From an uncultured Bacilli bacterium (GTDB lineage Bacteria; Bacillota_I; Bacilli_A; RF39; UBA660), in NCBI GenBank assembly GCA_934182615.1, contig CAKPRO010000008.1, positions 7,157 through 71,156 of the forward strand: 64,000 bases of DNA, given 5' to 3'. Each line of letters starts with the position of its first letter. The first letter of the stretch is position 1. The notes beneath the pieces were generated by a model. That model did no database searches and was not told the DNA's origin. It worked only from the letters and a program-made list of their open reading frames with translations. The translations under genes and the position numbers were made by a program. Positions 5,280-62,832 of this stretch are shown piece after piece.

Positions 5280-5528
5280 GATATCAACCATATTTATTAT
5301 ATTTGGGTTAATACTTTTTTGATAAAGAGAGGGTATAATTATCTTTTTTAAATATATCATAATAGTGTATTTTAAAAAAATAATCTTAAAATAGCGATTA
5401 TTATTTAAATATTTGTGAAAAAATCACAAAAATAGCAAAAATAAGTGTACTTTTTGATTATTTTAATTAATAAAAGATATGTACTTTAGAGATAGTTTTT
5501 AGTATAATAGTTATTAGGTGATATTAGT

Positions 5529-12716: not shown

Positions 12717-15326
12717 ATGAGAGAGATAATAAAAAGAAATGGTAAGTTTTTGATAATTATGTTATTGATCGTTGTTTTTGGTATAATTGGTGTTACTGTG
12801 GCTATTAAAGTTGGTAATTTTAATCCTATTAACTTAAGTACTAAGACAGCTAATATTGATTTAAATTTAACCTATGATACGGCGGTTAACGAGGCTAAAG
12901 TTACTAGTACGGATAAGATGCTTCCGATAGCGGATTCTTTGGTTACTGGGCCTACGGTTAGTGATGAAAGGGTATTAAAAGTTAAGTTTATGGTTACTGG
13001 TAAAGCTAGTAATCCAAGTAATACAATATATGATATTGCTCTTCATAATGCTGAAATTGATTGTGCTCTTCGGACAGAGGATTTGAAATGGCGTTTATAT
13101 AAGAATAATACTTTAATTTCTTCGGGTAATTTATCGCCAACATTTGATACTATGTCTGGTCAAAGATTGGTTCTTACTAATACACAACAAGATTTGACTA
13201 CTTCTACGGATACTTATGTATTTTTACTTTGGATTAGTGAGTCTTGCACTGGTGATATTAAGTCTTGTACTAAAGAACAAGATCAAAGCAAGTATTTAAA
13301 TAAATCTTTAACAGCGGATATTAAGATTGAACTTTCTACTAAGAGTAAAAAGGAACTTGTTAGAACTACTGGTAGTGCATTGTCTTGTAGTTATGTTGCA
13401 ACAAGTATTCCTAGTTGTAATACTGCTACATACGATGGTACTGAGCAGGTATTAATTAATGATGGAGACTATTATACTTTAGATAGGGCTACTGGTATTA
13501 ATGCTGGTACATATGCTGTTACTGCTAGGGTAAAAGATGGTTATAAGTGGACTGATGGTAGTACTGATCCTAAGGTTGTTAGTTGTAATATAAATAAAAG
13601 AAGTGTATCTATTACTAGTGATGATTTATCTGTTGATGTTGGCAGTTTTGATAATCATGATACTAGTGCTATTATTGCTAATAATTTAGTATCAGGGCAT
13701 TCTGTTAGTTATGTATTTATTAATTCTAGTGTTGCTGGGGTTGGTAGTGGTACAGCAACTCCGACTGCTGTTAAGATTGTCGATAGTAGTAATAATGATG
13801 TTACAGATAATTATAATATTGCTTATAATTCTGGTTCTATTGATGTTAAATGTATTAATACGGCTACTGCTCCAACAGTATCTAATCTGATATATACTGG
13901 GGCTACACTAACTGGAGTAAGTGGTGGAAGTAATGTTGTTATTACTGGTAGTAAAACAGCCAAAGATATGGGAAATTATAAGGTTACTGTTAAACCAGAG
14001 AGTAATTATTGTTGGAGTGATTATTCTACTGATGAGAAAACGTTTACTTGGTCAATTGGTAGTAATATGCTTAATGCTACTATTGCTAATAAGACTGTTA
14101 CTTATACTGGATCTGCTGTTAGTTCAAATGCAGTTGTTATTAAAGATTCTAATGGTAATACTATTACAGGACCTACTGTTACATATAAATATTATAGTGG
14201 TTCTAGTTGTTCGACATCTATTACTAGTGCTCCGACAGCGGCGGGTAATTATTCTGTTAAGGCTATTATATCTGCGTATGGTGCCTATCAAGCTACGGAA
14301 AGTAATTGTGCTTTGATAACTATTAATAAGAAAAGTTCTAGTATAAGTCTTAGTTCGTTTCCAACTTCTTTAGTTTATAGTACTGGTACTAGAAGTTATT
14401 CTTATACTTATACTGGTGATAGTACTACTCCTAGTATTACTTGTTCTAGTTCTAATACTTCTATTGCTACTTGTAATGTTGATACTACTAATAAAAAGAT
14501 TAATGTTGTTTCTAAAGGAATTGGTAGTACTACTATTACAGTTAAGGCTGCTGCTACTAGTACTTATAATGCTTCTTCAGTTAGTAAATCGTTATCTATT
14601 ACTTGTTTGAATACGGCTACTGAACCTACTAGTAAAGGTAGTGTTACTTATACTGGCAGTGTTATTACTGGTGTAAGTGGAGGAAGTAATATTACTTTAT
14701 CTGGTACTAAATCGGCTACTTCGGTTGGTAATTATACGGTTACGGCAACACCTAATACAGGTTATTGTTGGAGTAATAATACTATGACTACGAAGAGTTA
14801 TTCTTGGAGTATTGTGGCTTCTAAAACGGCTACTGAGCCTTCAGTATATAATTATACTTATAATTGTAATACACCTACTGTTACTGGTGTAAGTGGAGGT
14901 AATAATGTTACTTTATCTGGTACTACTTCTAGTAGTAGTACAGGAACGTTTACTGCTTATGCAACTCCAAAAACTAATTATGCATGGAGTGATGGTACTA
15001 CTGCTTCAAAAAGTTATACTTGGACAGTAGCGGCTCATACACACGTATTTACTGCTCGTGGTAATACTAAGTTTAGTACAGGATTTACTTGGACTTCTGG
15101 TGGTAATAGTTATACGACAGCATATGCTATTTATTGTAGAACTTGTGGTATGTCAGCTTTATATTATAAGAATAATTATGATAGTTCTGAGACTTCACTT
15201 ATGAGTCCATCTTATCCATATGGTACATCAGACGGATATTTGATATTTAGTGATAGTTCTGTTACATATGCTAAATATAAGGCTCATAGTTGTGGGTTAT
15301 CTGGATCTACTATTACGGGATATTAA
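12717..15326 (+). CDS. Large secreted/surface protein with repeated Ig-like (MBG-type) modules
   Basis: N-terminal anchor, family N-domain, then repeats of ..YTG..(L/I)TGVSGGSN(V/I)..SG(S/T)K.A...G.Y.VT..P...Y.WSD....K...W.I. Confidence 0.7.
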
Positions 15327-21397: not shown

Positions 21398-21426
21398 TTG
21401 AAATATATATTTGTTTATGATAAAAT
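21398..21426 (+). promoter_or_regulatory. Promoter of G9-leader module 1
   Basis: TTGAAA, 17-nt spacer, TAAAAT, with a TGa extended -10. The same architecture occurs at 42646-42674. Confidence 0.6.
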
Positions 21427-21462
21427 TAATTTATAAAATAAAGATTTGAGAGGAGGACCCTT

Positions 21463-21543
21463 ATGAAGAAGAAAGAATTAGCAAAAGTTAACCATTTGTT
21501 AACTAGTACTTTTGTACGTGTTGGGGGGGGGTCAAAAATCTAA
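21463..21543 (+). CDS. Leader ORF 1 (26 aa, MKKKELAKVNHLLTSTFVRVGGGSKI) containing the G9 tract
   Basis: AGGAGG lies 6 nt upstream of the ATG. The GGG GGG GGG codons are the homopolymer. Confidence 0.5.
   Translation: MKKKELAKVNHLLTSTFVRVGGGSKI
21523..21531 (+). repeat. Homopolymeric G9 tract
   Basis: Nine consecutive G in a very AT-rich region. The only other run this long in the window is at 42746-42754, in the paralogous position. Confidence 0.95.
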
Positions 21544-21576
21544 TCTAAATATAACAAATAATAATATAAATAAAGA

Positions 21577-21623
21577 CTATGAAATAACTAATAGAAATAT
21601 TAGTGATTTTTCATAGCCTTTTT
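21577..21623 (+). terminator. Intrinsic terminator between leader ORF 1 and the LRR gene
   Basis: Outer stem ctatgaaa/tttcatag, inner stem actaata/tattagt with a GAAA loop, then ccTTTTT. Confidence 0.6.
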
Positions 21624-21640
21624 GTATGGAGGTATACATT

Positions 21641-23155
21641 ATGAGAAAAAAGAAGAAATTTATATTAATATTAGTAATGGTATTAGTTTTAATGAGTTAT
21701 TTATATCAAAGTTATGCTTTATCTAGCATTATTACTGATAGTAATGATACATATGTTGTTAATGTTAATAATAATTCTAGTATTGAGGTTCCTGCGAATG
21801 GATTTAAGACTATATATTATAAAGTTTTAAATACTAATAAAGGGACAGTTAAATATGGTATTGGATATTCTGGTACTAGTGTTAAGGTTAAGGTGTATAA
21901 CGATTCTCAAGATGAAGAGACAGGCCTTATAGAGTATGGTAAAAGTAAATTTGTAAAATTAAAACTTATTAATAATAATGCTACTAGTAGTACTATTAAG
22001 TTAAGTACAATACTAGGTTATGAGAATGGTGGAAATTTAATAGTGCCTAGTGGTTATACTTTAGTTACTGAAAAAATAAATGAAAATAATGTTATGAAGT
22101 CTTCTGAAGATGCAACTTCTGCTAGCACGGCTTTTTTAAGAAGTTCATTAGTTAGAAGTAGTATTAATAGTATTACTTTTACTAATGATAACATTGTTTC
22201 TACTGATGTTGTAGGTAGTATGGATATATCACAAAATAGTGATGGTGGTGTAATGATGTGGTGGTATAATTCTTCTACAAGTGGAAAATATGATGTATAT
22301 ATAGGTAGTGAAAGTGGTAAGGTTGTTATTAAAGATTGTTATAAATTGTTTTCTTGGCTTACTAGTTTGACTTCTCTTGATTTAACATATCTTGATACTT
22401 CTAGTGTTACTAATATGAGTTATATGTTTTTTAATACTAGTTCAATTAATGAGTTAAATTTATCGGGTATTGATACTAGTAAGGTTACTAATATGAAAGC
22501 TATGTTTTCGGGATGTATAGCTTTAACTAAACTTAATGTTAGTAGTTTTAATACTGTGAATGTTACATCAATGGTTGATATGTTTGCTAATTGTCAAAAT
22601 ATTACAGAGATTGATCTTTCTAATTTTAAAACTCCTAATGTTACTGATATAAGTGGAATGTTTTATCAGAATTATCTTTTAGAAAATATTGATATAAGTA
22701 ATTTTGATACTAGTAGAGTTACTAATATGAGTAATTTATTTTGTAGTTGTAAGAAATTAACTTCTTTAAATTTAAGTAATTTTAACACTAGTAATGTTAC
22801 TAACTTTTATTATATGTTTAATGAGTGTAATGCTCTTACTAGTGTTTATTTAAATAGTTTTGATACTAGTTCTGCGACTAATATGGTTGGTATGTTTAGA
22901 AAGTGTAGTGCTTTAAGGAAAATAGATTTAAGTAGTTTTGATACAAGTAAAGTAACAAGCTCTTACTATATGTTTTTGAATTGTACGGCTGCTACTGAAA
23001 TTGATATTAGAAAGGCTGACTTTTCTAGTGTAACTAATTATAATCTTATGTTTTCTGGTGTTCCTAATGGTACTAAGATATACGTTAAAAATGATACTGT
23101 TAAATCTTGGATTACTAGTAAATTTTCTAATTTGACAGGAGTTACTACTGTTTAA
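21641..23155 (+). CDS. DUF285/BspA-like leucine-rich-repeat surface protein (paralog 1)
   Basis: Signal peptide, then about 25-aa repeats of the form LS.FDTS.VTNM..MF..C..L..(I/L)D. GGAGG lies 8 nt before ATG 21641. Confidence 0.8.
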   Translation: MRKKKKFILILVMVLVLMSYLYQSYALSSIITDSNDTYVVNVNNNSSIEVPANGFKTIYYKVLNTNKGTVKYGIGYSGTSVKVKVYNDSQDEETGLIEYGKSKFVKLKLINNNATSSTIKLSTILGYENGGNLIVPSGYTLVTEKINENNVMKSSEDATSASTAFLRSSLVRSSINSITFTNDNIVSTDVVGSMDISQNSDGGVMMWWYNSSTSGKYDVYIGSESGKVVIKDCYKLFSWLTSLTSLDLTYLDTSSVTNMSYMFFNTSSINELNLSGIDTSKVTNMKAMFSGCIALTKLNVSSFNTVNVTSMVDMFANCQNITEIDLSNFKTPNVTDISGMFYQNYLLENIDISNFDTSRVTNMSNLFCSCKKLTSLNLSNFNTSNVTNFYYMFNECNALTSVYLNSFDTSSATNMVGMFRKCSALRKIDLSSFDTSKVTSSYYMFLNCTAATEIDIRKADFSSVTNYNLMFSGVPNGTKIYVKNDTVKSWITSKFSNLTGVTTV

Positions 23156-23457: not shown

Positions 23458-23498
23458 ATAGTAAAGTTTATAGATGTAGAAGGAGGTAAATTATAAAC

Positions 23499-23633
23499 TA
23501 GCGCCTGAACCATATATGGTTGACGAGGAGAGTAATTATCGAATATTCGGCGGATGTTACTCTGGGTTATATACTCATTAGATTATTATAAAAAACAAAA
23601 TTAATATTGTAACAAGATAATAATCATATATAA
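23499..23633 (+). ncRNA. glmS ribozyme
   Basis: Core AGCGCCTGAACC...GGTTGACGAGGAGAG...TATCGAATATTCGGCGGATG matches the conserved glmS ribozyme core. It lies directly upstream of glmS. Confidence 0.88.
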
Positions 23634-23647
23634 GAAAGAGGTAAATT

Positions 23648-25414
23648 ATGTGTGGCATAGTAGGTTATGCAGGAAAAACAAATGTAATTAAAAATATAAT
23701 GACTGGTTTAAAGTCACTTGAATATAGGGGTTATGATTCTTCTGGTATTGCTTATATAAAGAATAATCAAATTAATATATATAAGAAAGAAGGACCTATT
23801 AAAAATCTAGATAAGATATTAAATTATAATGATGTAGCTAGTATAGGTATATCACATACAAGATGGGCTACTCATGGAGGAGCTAATGATACTAATGCTC
23901 ATCCACATAGACAGGGTAAAATTACTTTGGTTCATAATGGTATAATAGAAAATTATGATGTGTTAAAGAAAGAATTAGAGAAAAAGGGGTATGTATTTAA
24001 ATCTAGTACTGATACAGAGATTGCTGCGGGTGTTATTGATGATTTATATAATGAGACTGGTGATATGATTAGTACTTTAAGTAAAATAACGGATATATTG
24101 AAGGGTAGTTATGCTTTTAATATTATTAATGATGATACTCCTGATAAAATATATGGCATTAGAAAAGATGTTCCACTTATTGTAGGGATATCTGATGATG
24201 GTAATATGTTTGCTAGTGATATACCCGCTATCTTACATGTAACTAATAAATATGTTGTTCTTGATAATTATGATATAGTTGTTCTTGATCAAGATATGGT
24301 TAAATATTATGATAGAAGTGGTAAAGAGATTAAAAAAGATGTTAAAGAATATCTTGGAAATGTAGATACTATTAGTAAAAATGGTTATGATCATTTTATG
24401 TTAAAAGAGATTAACGAGGAAGCTGAAGTAGTAAAGAATATACTTAATTTATATACTACGGATGGTAAAGTTAATGATATTTTTGATATTAAGAAATATA
24501 AGAATATTGATATTGTAGCTTGTGGTTCTGCTTCTTTTGCTGGTCAAGTTGGTAAGTATTATATTGAAAAGTATGCTAATATTAAGACTGATGTATATTA
24601 TGCATCGGAATATAGATATCAAAAGAATTTCTTTAATAAAGATACTTTAGTAATACTAATATCACAATCGGGAGAGACTGCTGATACTTTGGCAGCTTTA
24701 AAACTAGCTAAAGAAAATGGTATTGATACACTAGCTATTGTTAATAGAAGAGATTCTTCAATAGCTAGAGAAGCTGGTAGTGTTATATATACTGAGGCTG
24801 GTATAGAGGTAGCAGTAGCTACTACTAAGGCTTATTTGGCTCAAATATTAGTACTTCTTTTATTAGCAGTACATAGTAATGAAATAGAAGCAAAAGTAAT
24901 TGCTGATTTGAAATTATTACCTAATTTAATTACGAAGTATATTAATGAATATGATTATAGTATTATTGCTAATGTACTTAAAGATAAAGAACACGTTTTC
25001 TATTTAGGTAGAGGTATTGATTATTATCTTAGTATGGAAGGTAGTTTGAAATTGAAAGAGATTTCTTATATTCATAGTGAGGCTTTTCAAGCAGGTGAAC
25101 TTAAACATGGTAGTATATCTTTAATTGATAAAGATTTTGGTGTAGTAGCGGTTGTTACGGATAAGGATATTTGTGATAAGACAATTAGTAATTTGAAAGA
25201 AGTAGCCGCTAGAGGGGCTAAAATTATTACTATTACTAATATTAATGACGAGGAATTTTCGGATTATAAGATTGTTATTGATGATTATGATGAGATTTTG
25301 AATCCTTTACTTACGATTATTCCTATGCAAATGCTTGCTTATAATGTTGCTAAATTAAGAGGTTGTGATATTGATAAGCCTAGAAATCTTGCTAAGTCTG
25401 TTACTGTTGAATAA
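23648..25414 (+). CDS. glmS: Glutamine--fructose-6-phosphate aminotransferase
   Basis: MCGIVGY N-terminus, two SIS domains, and a C-terminal ...KPRNLAKSVTVE. Confidence 0.95.
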   Translation: MCGIVGYAGKTNVIKNIMTGLKSLEYRGYDSSGIAYIKNNQINIYKKEGPIKNLDKILNYNDVASIGISHTRWATHGGANDTNAHPHRQGKITLVHNGIIENYDVLKKELEKKGYVFKSSTDTEIAAGVIDDLYNETGDMISTLSKITDILKGSYAFNIINDDTPDKIYGIRKDVPLIVGISDDGNMFASDIPAILHVTNKYVVLDNYDIVVLDQDMVKYYDRSGKEIKKDVKEYLGNVDTISKNGYDHFMLKEINEEAEVVKNILNLYTTDGKVNDIFDIKKYKNIDIVACGSASFAGQVGKYYIEKYANIKTDVYYASEYRYQKNFFNKDTLVILISQSGETADTLAALKLAKENGIDTLAIVNRRDSSIAREAGSVIYTEAGIEVAVATTKAYLAQILVLLLLAVHSNEIEAKVIADLKLLPNLITKYINEYDYSIIANVLKDKEHVFYLGRGIDYYLSMEGSLKLKEISYIHSEAFQAGELKHGSISLIDKDFGVVAVVTDKDICDKTISNLKEVAARGAKIITITNINDEEFSDYKIVIDDYDEILNPLLTIIPMQMLAYNVAKLRGCDIDKPRNLAKSVTVE

Positions 25415-27204: not shown

Positions 27205-27780
27205 ATGGATAATAAGAAATTTATATTAGGAGTAGTAGCATTATTAATACTTATGATAGGAGGAACATATGCCTACTACAAATGGAGTAGTACAGAAAAT
27301 ATTAATATTAATGTAAAGATAGAAGGTGGTACGGTTACATTTGATGGTGGTAGTAATATTACAGGAACAATAATACCGACTGCTAGTAAAGAAGAGGGTA
27401 TTAAGAAAGATATTACAGTTAAAGCAGATACGGCTGGAGCTACAATGAGTCTATTTATGGATTTAACTACAATGCCTAGTGAATTAAAAGACAAGTCATT
27501 TGAATATGAACTATATTATAATGATAGTACTTTAGTTAAGAAAGGTAATTTTGCAGCATATAATGCTAGTAGTAATGCTAGTGGTATAACATATGCTTCA
27601 AGTGGAGTTACTACTTTGACTTTATTTACTGGTAGAGATATTAGTACTACTGGTACTGATAAGTATACTTTATATTTATGGTTTAATGGTAAAGATTATA
27701 CTAATCCAAATACTATGCAAAATAAAACATTATCATTTGATCTATATGCTACTGGTGAGAATGCTGTATTAGCAGGATAA
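27205..27780 (+). CDS. Secreted protein, TasA-signal paralog family (N-domain only)
   Basis: Signal ends IGGTYAYYKW. The domain aligns with the N-terminus of the 42853 gene (SKEEGI.K...V, YELY, YTLY.W). Confidence 0.7.
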   Translation: MDNKKFILGVVALLILMIGGTYAYYKWSSTENININVKIEGGTVTFDGGSNITGTIIPTASKEEGIKKDITVKADTAGATMSLFMDLTTMPSELKDKSFEYELYYNDSTLVKKGNFAAYNASSNASGITYASSGVTTLTLFTGRDISTTGTDKYTLYLWFNGKDYTNPNTMQNKTLSFDLYATGENAVLAG

Positions 27781-28057: not shown

Positions 28058-29521
28058 ATGAAAAAAATACTTAATTTATTATATTTTATATTATTAATAT
28101 TATCTTATTATTTAACTAAGAATACAAATATGTTTTTATTAACAATTAGTTTTAGTTTACTAATTATTTATAGTGGTATCTTTAGTACTATGAGTATTAA
28201 AAAGAGATTAGAATCTTTATATGATAAAAAATATTATTATTCTATGAATAAGATATTTAAGGGAAGTATTTTATTAATTGGTATAATTGGACTTGTACTA
28301 GCCGCTATTAGTTATTTAATTGGTTTATTATTAAATATAAAGGGTATATTTATAGTAAGTATTAGTATGTGTTTATATTTGATAACAAAAGAAATTATTA
28401 ATATAGAAGGAGAGTATTTAAGTGTAATTAAATATAAAAAATTAGGTAATAATTTAAATGATATATATAAATTTGTTAATACTATTCTTTTAATTATTGG
28501 AATTATTTTATTATATAAAGTATTTAATTTAGATAATTATATTAATATTAGTATTTTATATTTGATTAGTGTTGTTACATTTATAGTATTTAATATTTTA
28601 TTTTATATTTTTATTTTTAAAAAGAATAAGTATGTTAAGAAAAGGGAAGAAAATAAAATTAATTATATAAAAGAAGTTAAAAGAATATTAGCAACGAATC
28701 GAATGGCTACGACGGCAAGTATTATACAAGGATCATATATTTATTTATCTATAGTTATATTATATTTTATATTAATTAATAAATATAATTATAGTTATGA
28801 TACTGTTGGGATGTATATTACTAATATATATTTTTATGGGATTAGTGTTGTATATATTATTTATAAAATTATTGAAAATATTTATGAAGATAAGTTTAAT
28901 GAAATTAAAAATAAAATTAATAATAAAGAAGAATGTAATATATATAATTTTATAAATAAGATTGTTATGTCTACGATGACTACTACTATTATAATGATAA
29001 TAGTAGCTAAACCTTTAAATAATTTATTATTTAATAATCAAGATATTAATATAGTTTTAAATGTTAGTTATTTGTTATTATTCTATGTATTATATATTAC
29101 TACTACTAAGATAAGTATGATATGTAATAAAGAAAAGAATGTATTTATAGTTTTGTTAGTAGGAGTATTAGTTACATTAATGACTAGTATACCTTTAATT
29201 GATGCTTCATATAGAATGGGTTATAATTTAGTTGGAGGTTCACTTATTTCAATAATTCTTGGATTTAGTGTAAGTACTATTATTTATATAATACTTATAA
29301 ATAAAAAATTAAAATTATCTTTATTAGATAACTTTAATAATATATTAAATATTATTTATGAAAGTATTATATATGCTTTATTCTTGGTATTATTTACTTT
29401 TATAGTAAAGGTAGATATAAATGGTATAATAAGAAGTATATTGGTGATTTTATTTTATATATTTATTAGTATTATGTTTTATATTGTTAAAGAAAAAATA
29501 ATAGGTAAAAGAGTGCAATAA
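28058..29521 (+). CDS. Polytopic membrane protein, possibly a MOP-family (Wzx/SpoVB-like) flippase
   Basis: 487 aa with about 12-14 hydrophobic segments. No catalytic motif was recognised. Confidence 0.35.
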   Translation: MKKILNLLYFILLILSYYLTKNTNMFLLTISFSLLIIYSGIFSTMSIKKRLESLYDKKYYYSMNKIFKGSILLIGIIGLVLAAISYLIGLLLNIKGIFIVSISMCLYLITKEIINIEGEYLSVIKYKKLGNNLNDIYKFVNTILLIIGIILLYKVFNLDNYINISILYLISVVTFIVFNILFYIFIFKKNKYVKKREENKINYIKEVKRILATNRMATTASIIQGSYIYLSIVILYFILINKYNYSYDTVGMYITNIYFYGISVVYIIYKIIENIYEDKFNEIKNKINNKEECNIYNFINKIVMSTMTTTIIMIIVAKPLNNLLFNNQDINIVLNVSYLLLFYVLYITTTKISMICNKEKNVFIVLLVGVLVTLMTSIPLIDASYRMGYNLVGGSLISIILGFSVSTIIYIILINKKLKLSLLDNFNNILNIIYESIIYALFLVLFTFIVKVDINGIIRSILVILFYIFISIMFYIVKEKIIGKRVQ

Positions 29522-29579
29522 TATTGCACTTTTTTATTAATTATGGTATCATTATTTTAGTATGATAGTGGGAATAGAT

Positions 29580-31124
29580 ATGAAAAAAATAAAAGATAAA
29601 AAGAAATTGTATATGATATTTGGTATAACTGTGTTAGTTGTAGCAATAATAGGTAGTACTTATGCCTACTATCGTTATGTATTAACATCTACTAGTGTAA
29701 ATACCATAACAAGAGGATTAGATTATTATATTAATTATGCTAAAGGTACAGATATAACTTCTGCTACTTTAAATCCAAGTGCTGATTATACTGGTGGTAA
29801 TAGTGCAACTGTAACCCTAAATAAAAAAGATAATACTTATGATATATATGGTCATATCTATTTAGATATTAGTACTATTGGTAGTAATTTAAGTAATAGT
29901 GATGCATTAAAGTATACAGTACTTGAAGGTAGTACTAAAGTATCGGAAGGCAAATTAAAAGGTGTTACTTCAAATGGCTCATATTTACTAGCAGTAAATA
30001 TTCCTTTAAAAACAACATCTACTACATATACTGTATATTTATGGTTAGACGAATCTGCTGGTAGTGATACTTCTATTGAAGGAGAAACTATTAAAGCTAC
30101 TGTCAGATGTGAAGCCACTATGAAAGAAATTAATGACGAACCATATACGTTTAGTTTTTCTAGAAAGATTATTAGTTTATATAATGTATCTACTAAAACA
30201 GATGTTACAAATAATAGCATAACTTATAAGTACGATACAAAAAATAATTTAATGCAAGATGTAGGTGGAAATATTAGATATTATGGAGCAAGTCCAAATA
30301 ACTATGTATATTTCAATTGTTCTGATTATGCAAATCAATCTTCTTCAACTTGTGAACTATGGAGAATAATTGGAGTATTTGATGGTAAAGTAAAATTAGT
30401 AAGAGATACTTCAATAGGAAGTTATTCTTGGGATAATAAGGATACAACAACTGGTGCAGAAAATAACAATGGTAAAAATGACTGGACTGATGCTAGATTA
30501 ATGAAATTACTAAATCCAGGTTATGATAGTGAAACAGTTGGTGGAAGCTTATATTACAATGCTAAAAGTGGAACTTGTTATGTTGGAAAAAATAATGCTA
30601 CAGTTGCTTGTAATTTTACATCTATTGGTATTAAAAATAGTGCAACAAGGAATTTAATTCAAGAAGTAGTATATAACATTGGTGGTTGGGATACTCCTGC
30701 TGTTTACTCAGATTTTATCTATGAAAAAGAAAGAGGCACTACTGTATATAGTGGAAGGCCAACAACATGGACGGGTAAAATAGGATTAATGTATCCAAGT
30801 GATTATGGATATGCTGCTGATTTTACAAAGTGTAAAGATGCAAGTGGTAACGATCTTACAATTTATAATTATGCTAGTAATGTTAATGATTATCAATGTC
30901 GAAAAAATAACTATTTATATAAAAATAAGTCTGAATGGTTATTAATTCCTAGTTCTGGAAGTTCATACAGCGTGTGGGACGTGGATTCGCCCAGCTATGT
31001 CAATTCTGGCGCTTATGTGTCTAATGGCGGCGCTATCCGCCCAGTCGTTTTTCTAAGTTCAACACAAGATATAGCAGGTGGAGAAGGGACAGAGAATAAT
31101 CCATATCAGTTATTGGTAGATTAA
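29580..31124 (+). CDS. Secreted protein, TasA-signal paralog family, with a C-terminal W..(I/R)PS...G.IRPV domain
   Basis: Signal ends IGSTYAYYRY. The C-terminus SEWLLIPSSG...NGGAIRPVVFL is shared with the 8764 pseudogene. It contains the GC-rich patch at 30971-31050. Confidence 0.7.
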   Translation: MKKIKDKKKLYMIFGITVLVVAIIGSTYAYYRYVLTSTSVNTITRGLDYYINYAKGTDITSATLNPSADYTGGNSATVTLNKKDNTYDIYGHIYLDISTIGSNLSNSDALKYTVLEGSTKVSEGKLKGVTSNGSYLLAVNIPLKTTSTTYTVYLWLDESAGSDTSIEGETIKATVRCEATMKEINDEPYTFSFSRKIISLYNVSTKTDVTNNSITYKYDTKNNLMQDVGGNIRYYGASPNNYVYFNCSDYANQSSSTCELWRIIGVFDGKVKLVRDTSIGSYSWDNKDTTTGAENNNGKNDWTDARLMKLLNPGYDSETVGGSLYYNAKSGTCYVGKNNATVACNFTSIGIKNSATRNLIQEVVYNIGGWDTPAVYSDFIYEKERGTTVYSGRPTTWTGKIGLMYPSDYGYAADFTKCKDASGNDLTIYNYASNVNDYQCRKNNYLYKNKSEWLLIPSSGSSYSVWDVDSPSYVNSGAYVSNGGAIRPVVFLSSTQDIAGGEGTENNPYQLLVD

Positions 31125-42645: not shown

Positions 42646-42674
42646 TTGAAAATTAAAAAAGTTTATGATAAAAT
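42646..42674 (+). promoter_or_regulatory. Promoter of G9-leader module 2
   Basis: TTGAAA, 17-nt spacer, TAAAAT, with a TGa extended -10. The sequence gtttatgataaaattaat is shared with module 1. Confidence 0.6.
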
Positions 42675-42706
42675 TAATACATAAAGTATGAAAGGAGGCC
42701 CTGCCT

Positions 42707-42760
42707 ATGGAAGTATTAGATATAGTTAACAACAAGTTAATTTTCGGGGGGGGGTTGTAA
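42707..42760 (+). CDS. Leader ORF 2 (17 aa, MEVLDIVNNKLIFGGGL) containing the G9 tract
   Basis: AGGAGG lies 8 nt upstream of the ATG. GGG GGG GGG is the homopolymer. Confidence 0.5.
   Translation: MEVLDIVNNKLIFGGGL
42746..42754 (+). repeat. Homopolymeric G9 tract
   Basis: Nine consecutive G, in the position paralogous to 21523-21531. Confidence 0.95.
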
Positions 42761-42786
42761 TCTAAATATAAATAATAATATTAATA

Positions 42787-42834
42787 AAGACTATGAAGTA
42801 ACTAGTAGTAATACTAGTCTTTCATAGTCTTTTT
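42787..42834 (+). terminator. Intrinsic terminator between leader ORF 2 and the LRR gene
   Basis: Outer 11-bp stem aagactatgaa/ttcatagtctt, inner stem actagta/tactagt with a GTAA loop, then a T5 run. Confidence 0.7.
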
Positions 42835-42852
42835 ACTATTGGAGGAATAATT

Positions 42853-44967
42853 ATGAACAAGTATAAGTTATATATGATATTTGGTATAGTATTATTAGGT
42901 TTATCTATTACTGGTAGTTTAGCATATTATATATGGAGTAGTAGTACTACTAGTATATCAGGTAATTTATGTTTACCAGAGATATATTTTACTGGAGGAG
43001 CTACGATTAATGGTAAATTAAAACCAGTATCTAGTAAAGAAGAAGGATTAATTAAAGAAGTAGAAGTAAACTTACATAAAACTTGTAATAATGATACTGC
43101 AGTAATGAATCTATATTTAAGTTTAGATTTATTACCTACAGCCTTACAAGAAAATACTTTTGTCTATGAATTATATAATGGTAGTAATGAATTAATAACT
43201 AGTGGTAACTTTAGTGATAAGAAACAAGGTGATACTATAACACTAGCTAATAATGAAATAGTAACTAGTAATGTATCTATATATACTTTATATATTTATA
43301 TAGATGGTAATAGAGATAATCCTATTACTATGAGTAATCAAAACTTTAGATTTAATATTTATGGAGAAGGAACTGGAGCTATATATAAAGAAAATGTAAT
43401 CCAAAATGAAACTACAACTCCCTCTAGTTCATCATCAACATTTCTAAATACTGAAGTACTTAGAAATCAAATAGAATCTATAACAATAGAGAAAAATAAT
43501 ATAGTACCAAGTGATGCAAAATATAGTAAAGATATATCATCAAAACAAGATGGAAGTGTAATGTTATGGTATACAGATAAAGATAATAATAGTTTATATG
43601 AAGTATCAATAGGTAGTGAGAATGGTTCACTTGAAGCTAACACTAATGGTAGTGGTATGTTCTCTTACTTAGATAATGTAGATATTCTAGATTTAACTGG
43701 TTTAAATACTAGTAATATGACTAGTATGAGTAAAATGTTTTACAATAGTACTAGTCTTAAAAACATAGATGTATCAGGATTCGATACATCAAAAGTAGTA
43801 AATATGGATTATATGTTTTTTGGATGTAATAATTTGAAAAATTTAAATGTGTTTAATTTTAATACTAGCAAAGTTAGAAATATGACCGGTATGTTTGAAG
43901 ATTGTTCTAATATAGAAAAACTTGATTTAAGTAATTTTGATACAGCAAATGTTTTATATATGGGTACTCCGGGATATGGATATGGAGGAATGTTTCAAGG
44001 ATGTACAAATTTAAAAAGTATTAATCTAAGTAGTTTTGATACAAGTAAAGTAATTTTGATGGGTAATATGTTTAGAAACTGTAAATCACTTGAGAGTATA
44101 GATTTATCAAGTTTTAATACATCAAATGTGACAAATATGGCTAGTATTTTTCGGAACTGTAGTTCTATCAAAAAATTAAATTTGTCGAATTTCGACACAT
44201 CAACTGTAACTAGTATGGCTGATATGTTTAACGGCTGTTTAGTATTAAATAATCTCGATTTATCAAGTTTTAATACATCAAATGTAACTAGTATGTCTGG
44301 TATGTTTACATACTGTTCTAATATAGAAAAACTTGATTTAAGTAATTTTAATACATCAAATGTAACAAATATGACTTCTATGTTTAGAGGATGTAAATTA
44401 TTGACGAATTTAAATATTAGTAATTTTAACACTAGTAAAGTCACTAATATGTCATCTATGTTTTCTAGTTGCAAGTCACTTGAAAACTTGTCTTTATTAA
44501 ATTTTGATACATCAAATGTAACAAATATGAATAATATGTTTAATGATTGTAGTTCTCTTAAAATTGTTGATTTATCAAGTTTTGATACCAGCAAAGTAAC
44601 AATTATGGCTGGTATGTTTGCATACTGTACTGCAATTGAAGAACTTAATTTAACTAATTTTGATACATCAAATGTAACAACTATGGATAGCATGTTTTGC
44701 AATTGTAGTTCACTTAAAATTGTTGATTTATCAAGTTTTAATACATCAAATGTAACTGATATGGGATTAATGTTTAGAATGTGTGGTAAATTAAAAACAA
44801 TTTATGCTTCAAGTTTGTGGAATGTTAATAAGGTTGACGATTCTTTTCAGATGTTTTTTTGTTGTGGTTCCCTTGCTGGAAGAGTACCATTTGATAGTAG
44901 TAAAATAGATGTAAGTATGGCTAATTATACTAATGGATATTTAACATATAAAAAGAATACTAATTAG
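42853..44967 (+). CDS. DUF285/BspA-like LRR surface protein (paralog 2) with a TasA-signal family N-domain
   Basis: Signal ends TGSLAYYIW. The N-domain is homologous to the 27205 product. More than 15 LRR units follow (LSSF(N/D)TSNVT.M..MF..C..L). Confidence 0.85.
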   Translation: MNKYKLYMIFGIVLLGLSITGSLAYYIWSSSTTSISGNLCLPEIYFTGGATINGKLKPVSSKEEGLIKEVEVNLHKTCNNDTAVMNLYLSLDLLPTALQENTFVYELYNGSNELITSGNFSDKKQGDTITLANNEIVTSNVSIYTLYIYIDGNRDNPITMSNQNFRFNIYGEGTGAIYKENVIQNETTTPSSSSSTFLNTEVLRNQIESITIEKNNIVPSDAKYSKDISSKQDGSVMLWYTDKDNNSLYEVSIGSENGSLEANTNGSGMFSYLDNVDILDLTGLNTSNMTSMSKMFYNSTSLKNIDVSGFDTSKVVNMDYMFFGCNNLKNLNVFNFNTSKVRNMTGMFEDCSNIEKLDLSNFDTANVLYMGTPGYGYGGMFQGCTNLKSINLSSFDTSKVILMGNMFRNCKSLESIDLSSFNTSNVTNMASIFRNCSSIKKLNLSNFDTSTVTSMADMFNGCLVLNNLDLSSFNTSNVTSMSGMFTYCSNIEKLDLSNFNTSNVTNMTSMFRGCKLLTNLNISNFNTSKVTNMSSMFSSCKSLENLSLLNFDTSNVTNMNNMFNDCSSLKIVDLSSFDTSKVTIMAGMFAYCTAIEELNLTNFDTSNVTTMDSMFCNCSSLKIVDLSSFNTSNVTDMGLMFRMCGKLKTIYASSLWNVNKVDDSFQMFFCCGSLAGRVPFDSSKIDVSMANYTNGYLTYKKNTN

Positions 44968-54303: not shown

Positions 54304-56928
54304 ATGAAAATAAACAGAAAAGGCTTTACTTTGATAGAATTATTAGGAGTAATAGTTATATTATCTTTAGTTGTAGGGTTTGCTACTTATGGGGTTATTA
54401 ATGCACTAAATAATTCTAAAGAACAAGCGAGTATTATTTCTGAGAGTAGTATAATGGCAGCGGCTACGACATTTTCTACGGAGAAAAATGATGATAATGA
54501 TCGCTGGGTAGATGTTAGTGGTAGTGATAGTAAGTATTTTTGTACGACTGTTGAAGAACTTATTAATAATGGTCTTCTTGATAAGAACGCTAAGTTTAAA
54601 GATGATAATATTGATAAGTATTCTTATATTGCTATAAAGAAAAATAAGGTTACTTTCACTACTAGTATTCCTATTATACTTACGGATACTAGTAGTGATG
54701 ATTATACTATTTGTAGTGGTAATATTAAGAATGAAGATATAATTAGTTATCCTACTCTTGGTAGTAGTAGTCCTTATACGGATACGTTAGAGGTTAATTT
54801 TACTGATGGTAAGGCAGAATCCACTATTAAGGATAGGACTTGTGAATATGGATATTATCCTGGACAAAGTTATGGTAAAGGTACTGTTAGTAATGGAAAA
54901 TGTGTCTTTGAAGGGTTAAGAGACAATAGTACTTATTATGTTAGAGTATGTATGACTACTGAAAAGAATAGTTATATTTGTTCTAATTCTGAAAGTAGAA
55001 AAACATTAAAAGTTCAAGGATCAACTTTTAGTACTAATGAAGATAAAATTAATATTAAATATGATAATACTGGAATAAAAGGTGAAGGTGGTTATTACTT
55101 TAGTATTCCAATGTCGGGTACTAGTGCTTCTGGTGTGAAAAAGTGTACTATTGTAGAAGATGAAAGTACTAGTCAAGATGCTTTTAGTAGACATAAATAT
55201 ATAATTAATTGTAGTGATGAGACTACGAATACTATTGAAGCTGATACTTGGTATAAGAGTGATACTATAACACCAGTAATAACAGTTACTGAGGGTAATG
55301 GTGGCCAACTTGAGACATATACTTATGATAAGAGTGGTAACTATATACATAATTATGATAATATTTATTCACGGGGAATTACTTTTTCTAAGGGAGAAGC
55401 TGATACGATAGATGGTAAAGCAGAAGATATTTATAAGACTTGTGTTAGTACAGATTATAGTTGTAATATTACTTCTCCTAGTATTGAAAAAGAAGGATAT
55501 ACAATAGTAGGATGGGGATTATCTGGTAGTACTACTAGTAGTTGGGATCCTAAGACTTCTAAGAGTGTTAATGGTGATTATATTTATTATCCTATTTTTA
55601 AAAATAGAGTTAATATCCAACTTAGTGTTAATGGTGGTAATTTAACTTCTATAACTGTATCTAATAATAAAGCATATTATTGGAAGACTGATAGTAGTGG
55701 TATTATTTATAAGTCTACGGATTATGGTCAAAAATATGATAAGAATTTTTTTTATATGAATAATGGTGCTACTTTAGGTGGTGATGGGTTACCTAATTAT
55801 AATAATGCTGAATATATTAATATTACTAGAGATGGTTATACTGTTATTAATGATAGTGAATGGATATGTTTAAGTGGATGTAGTACTTCTAATAAAGTAT
55901 TTAGTCAATCTAAGGCTTATAAATCTTCTGAATTTTGTGATGCTAGCAGCGATAGTTGTACTGTTGTATTAGGAGTTAATTGGCAGAATGCTTATAAAAT
56001 TAGTTATGATGCTAATGGTGGTAGTGGGGCTCCTAAAAGTCAAACTAAAGAAAAAGATAAAAATATTACTTTATCAGGAACTAAACCTACGAGAAGTGGT
56101 TATACTTTTCTTTATTGGAATACTAAGAAAGATGGATCGGGAGATAGTTATATGTCTGGTGGGACATATATTGATAATGCAAGTGTAACTTTATATGCAC
56201 AGTGGAGAGATAATAAACAAACATTAACTTATAATAATAATGGTGGTAGTGGTTGTACTTCTAAAAAAGTTACTAAAGGATCGGCATATGGTTATTTATG
56301 TACTCCTACGAGAAGTGGTTATACTTTTGTAGGATGGTTTGATGCTAATTATAAAGATAGTCCACTTAATTACTATGCAGACAATAATAGTGATGTTTAT
56401 GCTTATTTTAAATATGATGCTTCTTTATTATATAAACATTATTTAACTTATGGTAAGAGTGAAAATAGACGTATTTCACAGTATATATCTACAGATATCT
56501 TTAATGAAGCGGGAGATAAAACTATATATGCTGGTTGGATTAAATTCTTTATATTAGAGTCTATTACACCACTAGAACAAGTTGATTATGCGACTGTGGC
56601 AACTTTTACTTATGCTCCTTATGTTTGTAGAAGTAGTTTAGGTATTAATACTTCAAATTGTACTATTCAAGTTAGAAGTCCTGACTGTGCTATTAAGAGT
56701 TCAGCTGGTGCAACTACTAACTGTTTGAGTTCTGATGAATGGCATGATATTAGTGGAGTTACTATTAATGCATATTATTATACTAGTAATAGTAATGTTA
56801 GTAGTGCTACTGCTAGTACAAATAATAGTAGGCATTGTATTGATTATAGGGCTGTTGGTACTGATAGTTCAGGTAATTATATTGCTTCAGATAATTATAT
56901 TACTAGTTGTTATACAATAGTGAGATAG
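54304..56928 (+). CDS. Giant (874 aa) prepilin-type N-terminal-domain protein with Listeria-Bacteroides (Flg_new) repeats
   Basis: Class III signal MKINRKGFTLIELLGVIVILSLV. Two repeats are seen: Y.ISYDANGGSGAP...TRSGYTFLYWNT and LTYNNNGGSGC...TRSGYTFVGWF. Confidence 0.75.
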   Translation: MKINRKGFTLIELLGVIVILSLVVGFATYGVINALNNSKEQASIISESSIMAAATTFSTEKNDDNDRWVDVSGSDSKYFCTTVEELINNGLLDKNAKFKDDNIDKYSYIAIKKNKVTFTTSIPIILTDTSSDDYTICSGNIKNEDIISYPTLGSSSPYTDTLEVNFTDGKAESTIKDRTCEYGYYPGQSYGKGTVSNGKCVFEGLRDNSTYYVRVCMTTEKNSYICSNSESRKTLKVQGSTFSTNEDKINIKYDNTGIKGEGGYYFSIPMSGTSASGVKKCTIVEDESTSQDAFSRHKYIINCSDETTNTIEADTWYKSDTITPVITVTEGNGGQLETYTYDKSGNYIHNYDNIYSRGITFSKGEADTIDGKAEDIYKTCVSTDYSCNITSPSIEKEGYTIVGWGLSGSTTSSWDPKTSKSVNGDYIYYPIFKNRVNIQLSVNGGNLTSITVSNNKAYYWKTDSSGIIYKSTDYGQKYDKNFFYMNNGATLGGDGLPNYNNAEYINITRDGYTVINDSEWICLSGCSTSNKVFSQSKAYKSSEFCDASSDSCTVVLGVNWQNAYKISYDANGGSGAPKSQTKEKDKNITLSGTKPTRSGYTFLYWNTKKDGSGDSYMSGGTYIDNASVTLYAQWRDNKQTLTYNNNGGSGCTSKKVTKGSAYGYLCTPTRSGYTFVGWFDANYKDSPLNYYADNNSDVYAYFKYDASLLYKHYLTYGKSENRRISQYISTDIFNEAGDKTIYAGWIKFFILESITPLEQVDYATVATFTYAPYVCRSSLGINTSNCTIQVRSPDCAIKSSAGATTNCLSSDEWHDISGVTINAYYYTSNSNVSSATASTNNSRHCIDYRAVGTDSSGNYIASDNYITSCYTIVR

Positions 56929-61173: not shown

Positions 61174-62832
61174 ATGAGGAGTAAAAAAATATTGAGTTTA
61201 TTTATGTTTATGATGGGAATCTTTTTTATCTTTTCATCAAAAACACTAGCTTATGAAATAGGGGTATATTATAATGGCTCTGAAAGTAACAAAAATGAAA
61301 ATTATACAGAAGTTACTGGACTAGGGGGAACTAATACATTTGTTATGCACGCTACTAAAGAAGATGGTAATGATATTAGCAGACTTGTATATTGCGGTGA
61401 TGCCACTAAAGGTAATCCAAGAATAGAAGAAAATGGATATGTTAATTGGAACTGTAGTCCACTGTCTACTAACGCAGATCAACTAAGATATATATTTGCT
61501 AATGGTTATCAATATAAGTCCACTATGAGCGATAGTGATAAGAATGAATTCTTTAAAACGCAATTAGCAGTATGGTATTATACAGATAGTGGAAAAATAT
61601 TTAATAACTATGGTAAAGATGCTAATGGTAATTTAGATGGTACTTATAATGGTAGTAGTGATAGTACTGCTGCTGGTATTGCTAAATTAGTAAAAGACGC
61701 TCAAAACTATGCAAATAATTCAACACCATCTGTAAGCGTTTCTATTGACGGTGGTGATAAGACAATGTCTGTTACTAGTGATGGTAAATATTATATAAGT
61801 AAAGCAATTACTTTAGGTGGTAGTAACATAAGTGGTAACATAACAGTTACTATCTCAGGACCTAATGGAGCATTTGTTACATCTGATAAAAATGCGACAA
61901 CAGGTAGTAGTTCTTTTGCAAATGGTAGCAAAGTTTATATTAAAGTGCCTACTGGTTCAGTTGGTGATAAAGCTTTTTCAAAACTAACTGCTAGTGGTAG
62001 TGGAAAAGTATATACTGGTGGTGTATATAGATGTACACACGTTACTGGTAGTGGTAATGTACAGGATATAATTGATTATGTACCAAGCGAAGAAGCAAAA
62101 ACCGCTACTGACGATATTACAGTAACTGCTACTAAAAATATGGTATATATATCAAAAACAGATATAACTGGTTCTAAAGAAATAGAAGGTGCAGAATTAG
62201 TTATTAAACAAGGAGATACTAAAATTGTTAGTTGGACTTCAACAACAACACCATATGGATATTATTTAGCTCCAGGAACATATACTTTAGAAGAAACTAT
62301 TGCTCCTAAAGGATATATTAAAAGTACTTCAAAGATAACTTTTGTTGTAAAAGATAATGGTAAAGTAACAGTAGATGGTAAAGAAGTAACATCAGTAGTT
62401 ATGAAAAATGAACCAATAACAGTAATTATATCTAAAAAGAGTATTAATGGTAAAACGGAACTTCCTGGTGCAAAGTTAAAAATAACTGACAAAGATGGTA
62501 ATATTTTAAAAGATATAGAAGGTAATGATCTAGAGTGGACTTCTACTACTAAAGAAAAAAGTTTTCATTTAGCACCTGGTACTTATTATTTAACAGAAAC
62601 TATTGCTCCAGATGGATACGAATTATCTGATACAACAATAGAATTTACAGTTACTGAAGATGGTAAAGTAAAAATGAATAAAAAGGATGTTGATGGTAAT
62701 TTAATTGTATTTACAAATACACCAGAAGCAACTGAAGTAAAAACAGGTAGTTTTATAATATATATAGTAATTATTGGTGCAGTAGCAGTAGGTTTAGTTA
62801 CTTACTATGTTATGAAAAAACAAGAGGCATAA
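61174..62832 (+). CDS. Surface adhesin with thioester (TQxA) domain and two SpaA/CnaB-type domains
   Basis: Signal peptide. VYCGD plus TQLAVWYY form the thioester pair. Two G.Y.L.ETIAP.GY modules follow. The C-terminal segment is EVKTG, a hydrophobic stretch, then KKQEA. Confidence 0.75.
   Translation: MRSKKILSLFMFMMGIFFIFSSKTLAYEIGVYYNGSESNKNENYTEVTGLGGTNTFVMHATKEDGNDISRLVYCGDATKGNPRIEENGYVNWNCSPLSTNADQLRYIFANGYQYKSTMSDSDKNEFFKTQLAVWYYTDSGKIFNNYGKDANGNLDGTYNGSSDSTAAGIAKLVKDAQNYANNSTPSVSVSIDGGDKTMSVTSDGKYYISKAITLGGSNISGNITVTISGPNGAFVTSDKNATTGSSSFANGSKVYIKVPTGSVGDKAFSKLTASGSGKVYTGGVYRCTHVTGSGNVQDIIDYVPSEEAKTATDDITVTATKNMVYISKTDITGSKEIEGAELVIKQGDTKIVSWTSTTTPYGYYLAPGTYTLEETIAPKGYIKSTSKITFVVKDNGKVTVDGKEVTSVVMKNEPITVIISKKSINGKTELPGAKLKITDKDGNILKDIEGNDLEWTSTTKEKSFHLAPGTYYLTETIAPDGYELSDTTIEFTVTEDGKVKMNKKDVDGNLIVFTNTPEATEVKTGSFIIYIVIIGAVAVGLVTYYVMKKQEA

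Follow-up and report, generated by a model that had tools for sequence, protein, structure and literature searches.

Two leader modules upstream of DUF285 genes

The window analysed here is a 64-kb stretch (64,000 nucleotides, nt) of contig CAKPRO010000008.1, from an uncultured Bacilli bacterium. It carries two copies of a compact leader module, each followed by a gene for a DUF285 surface protein. The module comprises a promoter, a strong Shine-Dalgarno (SD) sequence, a small leader open reading frame (ORF) that contains a run of nine G residues (G9), and a terminator-like hairpin followed by a T-run. Our main subject is the second copy, module 2, whose features are as follows.

42646..42674, + strand: promoter of the sigma-70 type, TTGAAA, 17 nt, TG-extended TAAAAT (10 of 12 consensus matches, TG present)
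42693-42698, + strand: leader SD sequence AGGAGG, read from the sequence
42699-42706, + strand: C-rich spacer between SD and ATG, CCCTGCCT, predicted by RNAfold to pair with the G tract
42707..42760, + strand: leader ORF in the assembled G9 state, MEVLDIVNNKLIFGGGL, with ATG at 42707 and stop TAA at 42758-42760; short frame, predicted OFF
42725..42741, + strand: leader motif GTTAAC-AACAA-GTTAAT, a small hairpin in the predicted fold
42746..42754, + strand: G9 tract, the putative mutable element, judged by its status as one of the only such runs and by its length polymorphism
42755..42827, + strand: long-frame continuation of the leader (G8 or G11), ..CNLNINNNINKDYEVTSSNTSLS, with stop TAG at 42825-42827 in the 3' arm of the hairpin
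42786..42834, + strand: two-tier terminator-like hairpin (42786-42832, from the fold) and T5 (42830-42834), with outer stem AAAGACTATGAAG / CTTTCATAGTCTTT and inner stem-loop ACTAGTA-GTAA-TACTAGT
42841..44967, + strand: controlled gene, with SD GGAGG at 42841-42845 and ATG at 42853, for a DUF285/LRR protein of 704 amino acids (aa) with an N-terminal membrane or signal anchor

An A+T-rich spacer of 31 nt separates the tract from the hairpin, which by itself folds at about -21.6 kcal/mol. Translated as if the tract were G8, the leader becomes a 39-aa ORF, MEVLDIVNNKLIFGGGCNLNINNNINKDYEVTSSNTSLS, that ends in TCA TAG (42822-42827) inside the 3' arm of the hairpin. Module 1 shares this anatomy, from the promoter to the DUF285 gene.

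21398..21426, + strand: promoter TTGAAA, 17 nt, TG-extended TAAAAT, in the same layout as in module 2
21450..21462, + strand: leader SD GAGGAGG (21450-21456), then C-rich ACCCTT (21457-21462)
21463-21543, + strand: short-frame leader ORF, MKKKELAKVNHLLTSTFVRVGGGSKI, with ATG at 21463
21487-21503, + strand: leader motif GTTAAC-CATTT-GTTAAC
21523..21531, + strand: G9 tract
21572..21623, + strand: hairpin (21572-21621) and T-run, with inner stem-loop ACTAATA-GAAA-TATTAGT and the long-frame TAG at 21614-21616
21628..23155, + strand: controlled gene, with SD GGAGG at 21628-21632 and ATG at 21641, for a 504-aa DUF285 protein with a signal-like N-terminus

An earlier interpretation, made from the letters of the window and called here the sequence-only reading, had described module 2 as a second copy with the same architecture, promoter layout and shared sequence. 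This is borne out: the 18-mer gtttatgataaaattaat is identical in both modules, with no third site in the window, and both downstream genes encode DUF285 proteins. The same reading had pointed to a compensatory pair in the inner stem, and the inner stems of the two modules do differ by a true double change. It was wrong in calling the leader peptides 5' of the tract unrelated, since both leaders contain GTTAAC-N5-GTTAA(C/T), which encodes V-N-x-x-L, and a C-rich spacer between SD and ATG. The spacers between tract and hairpin measure about 31-40 nt in the two modules, and the surface-protein gene is the sole neighbour that they have in common. The outer stem of module 1 has one A-C mismatch, at which a variant (L012) restores pairing by a C to T change.

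The G tract is rare and varies in length between assemblies

In this window of 73% A+T, the two G9 tracts are the only homopolymers of at least nine residues of any base, no run of A, T or C reaching nine, and the only G runs of six or longer. Runs of G8 or longer were observed at 2 loci in the window, against 0.1 expected. For a comparison of the loci, the exact upstream neighbour proteins were looked up in public assemblies, and this returned human-gut metagenome contigs, from the Hadza and other cohorts, with the same flanks. At the module 2 locus, the tract is G8 in six and G9 in four of ten other contigs, and in the six G8 assemblies the 39-aa long-frame ORF is called as a gene. The module 1 locus is elsewhere found with G9 or G10. 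A close orthologue of module 2 occurs in metagenome contigs with G7, G8, G9 and G10, and several further loci are likewise length-variable between samples.

The modules also leave their mark on assembly and annotation. Whether the small ORFs are annotated at all depends on tract length, and the modules are places where contigs break or jump. Many metagenome contigs (L015-L020) end in or at module 1, one of them (L017) within the G run. As assembly break points, such loci are probably under-represented in metagenome-assembled genomes (MAGs). Three MEGAHIT contigs (L002, L007 and L008, positions about 5290-6270), compared with contig L003 and the window, are identical to the window through module 2, switch within the first 90-480 nt of the gene to a paralogue of ~90% identity, and after ~1 kb run into unrelated contexts. 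Such switches point either to chimeric assembly across the 5' ends of paralogues or to genuine recombination between loci for surface proteins.

A family of modules in uncultured gut Bacilli

Copies beyond the two in the window are numerous. We found more than 80 distinct related modules, with tracts from G5 to G12 and no favoured phase, in MAGs of uncultured low-G+C gut Bacilli or 'Tenericutes'. A genome scan keyed on the outer stem gave 109 loci among the matches listed, with at least 42 distinct hairpin-anchored modules; about half of the loci were unrelated (Clostridium, Staphylococcus and others), because the outer stem alone is a near-palindrome common to generic bidirectional terminators. 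A metagenome scan keyed on GTTAAC-N5-GTTAA plus G7 or more, with no hairpin condition, gave 120 matches, of which about half were G+C-rich noise and were filtered by local G+C, leaving 54 distinct low-G+C motif-anchored matches. Those with module architecture have a hairpin and T-run in each case, and an SD sequence and start codon in almost all. Four motif-anchored matches are unlike modules; in at least three of these the hairpin is weak, at -3 to -9 kcal/mol, and no start codon follows.

A profile built from the long-frame peptides retrieved 303 predicted proteins of 41-64 aa, none of them from outside metagenomes or MAGs; they include GG, GGG, GGGG and interrupted-tract versions. The hosts are recorded as uncultured Bacilli, 'Tenericutes', Firmicutes bacterium CAG:321 and similar labels, from human and rabbit gut. 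Individual MAGs, of roughly 1.5 Mb, hold at least eight module copies.

The genes 3' of the modules all start with a signal or membrane-anchor-like N-terminus. Several encode DUF285/LRR proteins; among the rest are a protein with Listeria-Bacteroides repeats, one that bears a dockerin, and proteins for which Pfam gave no match. This diversity of surface families indicates that the module is a general leader of surface-protein genes in the lineage. The distance from the T-run to the next ATG is 13-32 nt, which leaves no space for a separate promoter after the hairpin.

One reading frame in three enters the hairpin

Of the three frames that can follow the tract, exactly one reaches into the hairpin or beyond, and the two others terminate 16-44 nt upstream of it. 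This rule is obeyed by 35 of the 35 genome modules outside one long-read MAG (among the matches listed), and by 51 of the 54 motif-anchored matches. Both sets agree with the statement in the sequence-only reading that the -1 (G8) frame ends in TCA TAG within the 3' arm of the hairpin and that this stop position is kept. The long-frame stop is usually the TAG of the 3' arm, located in the main clade 25-30 nt before the downstream ATG. In a rabbit-gut clade the long frame passes the T-run and overlaps the ATG of the next gene, ending in ATGA or TATGAATAA over the downstream start. Eighteen of the 54 motif-anchored matches, about one third, were assembled in the long frame, which is the share expected if tract lengths are random, that is, unselected.

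The spacers between tract and hairpin fall into 11 clusters below 60% identity, and exactly one frame is open in 11 of 11. Shuffling gives a chance of ~0.5 per spacer for one open frame, with a product of 2.6e-4, so that the statistical weight lies in the consistency across clades. The peptide encoded after the tract is unrelated between clades (VYLTINKRNIDKIN.., VLSLASKDFISNLNKI.., LNLYNIRNCSI.., LEFYILINNISK..), and within the window's clade its changes are mostly non-synonymous. Turnover of the peptide with retention of the open frame suggests that selection acts on an open frame of the right phase and not on the peptide.

These observations bear on the alternative offered by the sequence-only reading, in which the G8 frame is the true gene and encodes a peptide with a double-glycine-like leader. 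Taken further, the long frame would give rise to a small secreted peptide (a bacteriocin or pheromone) that is functional in its own right and switched by the tract, and the hairpin would be the terminator of this gene. In favour of this, hundreds of contigs have the long frame annotated as a gene, ..GGG comes after a hydrophobic stretch, and the peptide tail NLNI.NNNINKDYE.T is conserved within the window's clade. However, the GGG is the tract itself, KDYE is what the arm of the hairpin spells when translated, the frame ends within the hairpin or, in the rabbit clade, at the start of the next gene, and the surface-protein gene is the only neighbour common to the two window copies. The long-frame peptide had no match in Pfam or NCBIfam, even at permissive E-values, and no C39 or ABC transporter was found among the 25 window ORFs scanned, which comprise the neighbours of both modules and the largest ORFs. 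With glycines that derive from the tract, a core that is not conserved, no family match and no transporter among those ORFs, the double-glycine gene finds no support, and we consider it very improbable.

In three modules the tract has decayed or is lost: L114 retains G5, L126 reads AAAAGGG, and L091 has GGTGGTGGTGGT, in which four Gly codons persist. Each of them is fixed in the long frame, with TCA TAG at its end, and this provides indirect support for an ON state that depends on translation and on the terminator. The same copies matter for a second alternative. Long homopolymers are slippage sites for RNA polymerase and ribosomes, and polymerase slippage or ribosomal frameshifting on the G run might give a fixed long-frame fraction with no heritable change, so that the module would act as a constitutive attenuator or rheostat. 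The rarity of GGG codons in this 27% G+C genome would fit such a role, as would the pairing of the tract with a pyrimidine tract that resembles an anti-SD sequence. Yet DNA-level length differences at one locus are common between assemblies, as in contingency loci, the tracts range from G5 to G12 with no preferred phase, and what the tract-less copies have retained is the long frame, not the slippery site. We regard slippage without heritable change as decidedly improbable.

The hairpin covaries as a terminator-like structure

Hairpins were collected by RNAfold-based detection. Across 27 distinct hairpins, compensatory double changes occur at 12 of the 18 consensus pairs; one outer pair, for example, is G-C in 14 and A-U in 13, and one inner pair is A-U in 13, G-C in 11 and C-G in 2. 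In some clades the stems are built from a wholly different sequence, yet the two-tier shape is the same and the loop is GNRA-like. The hairpins fold at -14 to -25 kcal/mol and are followed by a T-run, which is present in every clade. In the predicted folds, the downstream SD and ATG are located outside the hairpin. An antiterminator and regulatory codons were sought in both window folds and none was found, the spacer being unpaired and nothing competing with the terminator. One candidate antiterminator, formed by pairing of the module 1 leader segment TTAACTAGTA with the inner stem, was rejected, as TTAACTAGTA is not conserved in module 2. From the folds and the covariation we infer that the hairpin is an intrinsic terminator, and both termination and read-through are predicted.

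Compensatory changes also speak to the most sceptical explanation, according to which nothing here is functional and the modules reflect homopolymer sequencing or assembly artefacts together with chance ORFs in the duplicated 5' region of paralogous genes. The modules are indeed paralogous, so their conservation is partly shared ancestry, and contigs often break at them. Nevertheless, the tract is found in all clades, in human and rabbit gut and in many independent assemblies, the compensatory changes maintain the hairpin, the frame rule persists through spacer turnover and indels, and long homopolymers are otherwise absent from the window. The number of independent assemblies and the covariation make a sequencing artefact very unlikely, and we give next to no credence to the idea that the modules lack any function.

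A proposed phase-variation switch

The sequence-only reading had argued that the module is a functional RNA/translation device and not a product of chance, and had named further copies, tract-length polymorphism in relatives and covariation of the hairpin as ways to check this. The argument is supported by the abundance of copies, by polymorphism at the same locus (G7-G10 across assemblies), by covariation at 12 of 18 pairs and by the frame rule. To this device we add a reading in terms of phase variation. In our view, the module is likely to be a simple-sequence-repeat switch that operates by leader-peptide-dependent transcription attenuation, with the anatomy of the modules and the fixed long frame of the tract-less copies pointing in the same direction.

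The switch would operate as follows. From a constitutive-looking promoter, a transcript would be made that opens with a well-translated leader ORF, and the G tract in this ORF would change length by slipped-strand mispairing at replication. In two of the three length classes (G9 and G10 in module 2), the ribosome would stop 1-8 codons past the tract, at least about 23 nt before the hairpin. In this short frame, the hairpin and T-run would form, and transcription would end before the surface-protein gene (OFF). Both modules of the window, being G9, are in the short frame and are predicted to be OFF. In the third class (G8 or G11 in both modules), the ribosome would read ~25 more codons into the hairpin and stop at the UAG in its 3' arm or, in one clade, at the start codon of the next gene. 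Following RNA polymerase, this ribosome would block the hairpin and permit read-through (ON). The long frame would also bring terminating ribosomes to ~15-30 nt from the next ribosome-binding site, and translational coupling may add to the effect.

This last point can be taken further, for the switch might act mainly on translation: ribosomes in the long frame would end near the ribosome-binding site and start of the surface gene and re-initiate there or open a structure, and the hairpin would serve as a messenger RNA stabiliser or a translation barrier. Such a mechanism would suit the rabbit-gut long frames that end over the downstream start, the main-clade stop 25-30 nt before the ATG, and the shortness of the T-run. 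However, with the downstream SD and ATG outside the hairpin in the folds, nothing obvious needs opening, and in every clade a T-run comes after the hairpin, whose covariation is like that of a terminator. In the analogous system of Streptococcus gallolyticus, the effect is on transcript level and is lost on terminator deletion (PMC3894217). A mainly translational switch thus appears unlikely, and transcriptional and translational mechanisms may act together.

Several points weigh against a phase-variable attenuator. The length polymorphism of the tract is seen between consensus assemblies and not within one clone, and in single cases Illumina consensus errors at G8-G10 may contribute to it. 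A single spacer with one open frame is not rare by chance. Close transcription-translation coupling is reported to be weak in some Firmicutes. The inner stem contains no more than two G-C pairs, the T-run is a short one of five residues, and a simple consensus terminator scan listed neither module's hairpin, so that the case for termination rests on folding and covariation. Finally, a complete long-read MAG (CP091726.1) obeys the frame rule in three of its seven modules; in the remaining four, even the longest frame ends 10-16 nt short of the hairpin. We would attribute these exceptions to homopolymer errors, because the downstream genes of this assembly also break at poly-A runs.

The breaks in CP091726.1 were observed in the genes after three modules (L042, L046 and L085), which are cut to 8 codons (MEKKKRSL, then a stop) at a poly-A run right after the start codon. 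Such truncation may stem from misassembled homopolymers, or poly-A runs may add a second layer of phase variation.

Should the proposed switch operate as described, uncultured small-genome, low-G+C gut Bacilli of humans and rabbits would vary their surface stochastically, like mycoplasmas and mucosal pathogens. The distance between tract and terminator is below 100 nt, so single metagenomic or metatranscriptomic reads can link tract length to read-through.

A conserved pyrimidine tract and leader helix

A feature unremarked by the sequence-only reading is that the 8 nt before the leader ATG are C/U-rich. At least four C in an 8-nt window are present in 85% of modules, compared to 22% of control windows from the same contigs, and in the window analysed here the 9 nt ahead of 29 further ORF starts with an SD sequence contain 0-1 C. 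The C/U block ends at most 6 nt from the AUG in 73 of 79 modules. RNAfold pairs at least six G's of the tract with this block in 87% of modules, compared to 27% after shuffling. Just 5' of the tract, clades with otherwise different leaders share an almost constant GTTAAC-N5-GTTAA(C/T), which is predicted to fold as a small hairpin inside the C/U:G helix. For want of any variation the motif gives no covariation, and a role as protein-binding site or as pause signal is just as possible.

In one divergent clade, the C tract is placed directly 5' of the GTTAAC hairpin, which forms one continuous stem with the tract. The clade (L131, L147, L176, L208, L222 and L233) also has two small hairpin-plus-T-run elements 3' of the tract. 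The leader of one member, L131, contains an in-frame TAG before the tract (CAA TAG, against CAA CAG in its clade mates), and this copy may be dead.

By analogy with trp-type leaders, the conserved pairing of the C/U tract with the G tract might perhaps serve as a pause or coupling hairpin. A more specific proposal, which we put forward as tentative and rather doubtful, is that the mutable tract forms the 3' arm, and the C/U tract over spacer and AUG the 5' arm, of a conserved leader helix that encloses the GTTAAC hairpin and acts as a built-in pause or coupling device. Tract length might then tune both the frame and the strength of the helix, and the module would be a portable phase-variation cassette for any surface gene. 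If so, the helix would keep RNA polymerase waiting for translation of the leader, or would restrict initiation to a single pioneer ribosome up to that point, and ribosome-dependent antitermination would be made reliable in a lineage with loose transcription-translation coupling.

Other features of the window

Three surface-like proteins of the window, encoded at 12717-15326, 54304-56928 and 61174-62832, have no poly-G module. One is MpPF1-like, one has Flg_new repeats and a pilin-type N-methylation motif, and one has SpaA and thioester domains. Their presence indicates that the switch serves part of the surface repertoire only. A 191-aa ORF at 27205-27780 has 33% identity to residues 44-177 of the module 2 DUF285 protein, which is its N-terminal, non-LRR part; this ORF is without a poly-G module and without a clear Pfam match.

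At the gathering threshold, an Rfam 15 scan of the window returned only glmS and four tRNAs, with no match at either module. The glmS ribozyme/riboswitch (87 bits, 23489-23635) is located directly 5' of glmS (23648-25414) and just 3' of the module 1 gene. Between 28001 and 30000 the G+C content falls to 0.19, and two long ORFs, at 28058-29521 and 29562-31124, are without a Pfam match.

Comparison with known systems

As far as the searchable literature shows, the pil1/pil3 loci of S. gallolyticus are the only described case of phase variation by leader peptide and terminator. A search for DUF285 or RF39 in connection with phase variation returned nothing relevant, and the words leader peptide, attenuation, terminator and gallolyticus are all absent from a phase-variation review of 2025. 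A rare mechanism with one described case thus appears here as a widespread, multi-copy cassette.

Homopolymeric-tract contingency loci are well known in Neisseria and Haemophilus and in the Vlp system of Mycoplasma. The poly-G tracts of Campylobacter jejuni are likewise homopolymeric contingency loci, linked to surface-exposed proteins and switched by frame (PMC11955535). The modules resemble these classical loci in having a length-variable homopolymer, surface proteins as output, many loci per small genome and frame-based switching. In the classical loci, however, the tract lies in the coding region of the controlled gene or in its promoter spacer, whereas here it lies in a separate upstream ORF and would be read out by a terminator, and the controlled protein is never truncated.

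The pyrBI leader of Escherichia coli exemplifies ribosome-mediated attenuation without a separate antiterminator hairpin. Both pyrBI and trp-type attenuation (the latter described in PMC3894217) are similar to the modules in that the leader ORF overlaps or abuts the terminator and a close ribosome blocks the hairpin. The input, by contrast, would here be a heritable frame state instead of charged tRNA or nucleotide supply. Compared to trp-type leaders, no regulatory codons or alternative antiterminator were found in the window folds, and the leader sequence varies between clades.

In cwpV of Clostridioides difficile, a surface protein is turned ON or OFF through a terminator in the 5' leader, the state of which is set by site-specific DNA inversion, independently of translation. 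The terminator-based logic is alike, and in the modules the state would instead be set by repeat length and leader translation. With the double-glycine leaders of class II bacteriocins and pheromones, the modules share a small ORF with Gly-Gly; they differ by the lack of a family match, by the absence of a C39 transporter among the scanned ORFs and by the variable core.

The closest analogue is pil1/pil3 of S. gallolyticus, described in 2014, where the leader-peptide gene contains GCAGA repeats by which its stop codon is moved from 28-39 nt ahead of a terminator to a position within or beyond it (PMC3894217). Leaders ending at least 28 nt before the terminator give low expression, and those ending within or after it give high expression (PMC3894217). 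High expression needs translation of the leader, deletion of the terminator locks the system ON, and it is the ribosome that destabilises the terminator (PMC3894217). Both systems consist of a hypermutable repeat in a small leader ORF, a stem-loop terminator, predicted in the case of the modules, and one or more surface-structure genes. The logic of the stop shift is the same, the short frames of the modules ending 16-44 nt before the hairpin and the long frame in its 3' arm.

The two systems also differ in several respects. The modules have a G homopolymer, no GCAGA repeat and no sequence similarity to pil1, which makes them analogues and not homologues. One of three phases is long in the modules, compared to two of three in pil1. 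Here, a cassette with at least eight copies per roughly 1.5-Mb genome precedes diverse surface genes throughout an uncultured lineage, and it has in addition a conserved C/U tract at the leader AUG, predicted to pair with the repeat tract, and the GTTAAC-N5-GTTAA motif. The logic of pil1 has been shown experimentally, whereas the module is known from sequence. What is new is therefore not the logic itself, but its appearance in an unrelated sequence, with a homopolymer that has one ON phase in three, an additional helix that involves the repeat, and a multi-copy cassette spread across an uncultured gut lineage.

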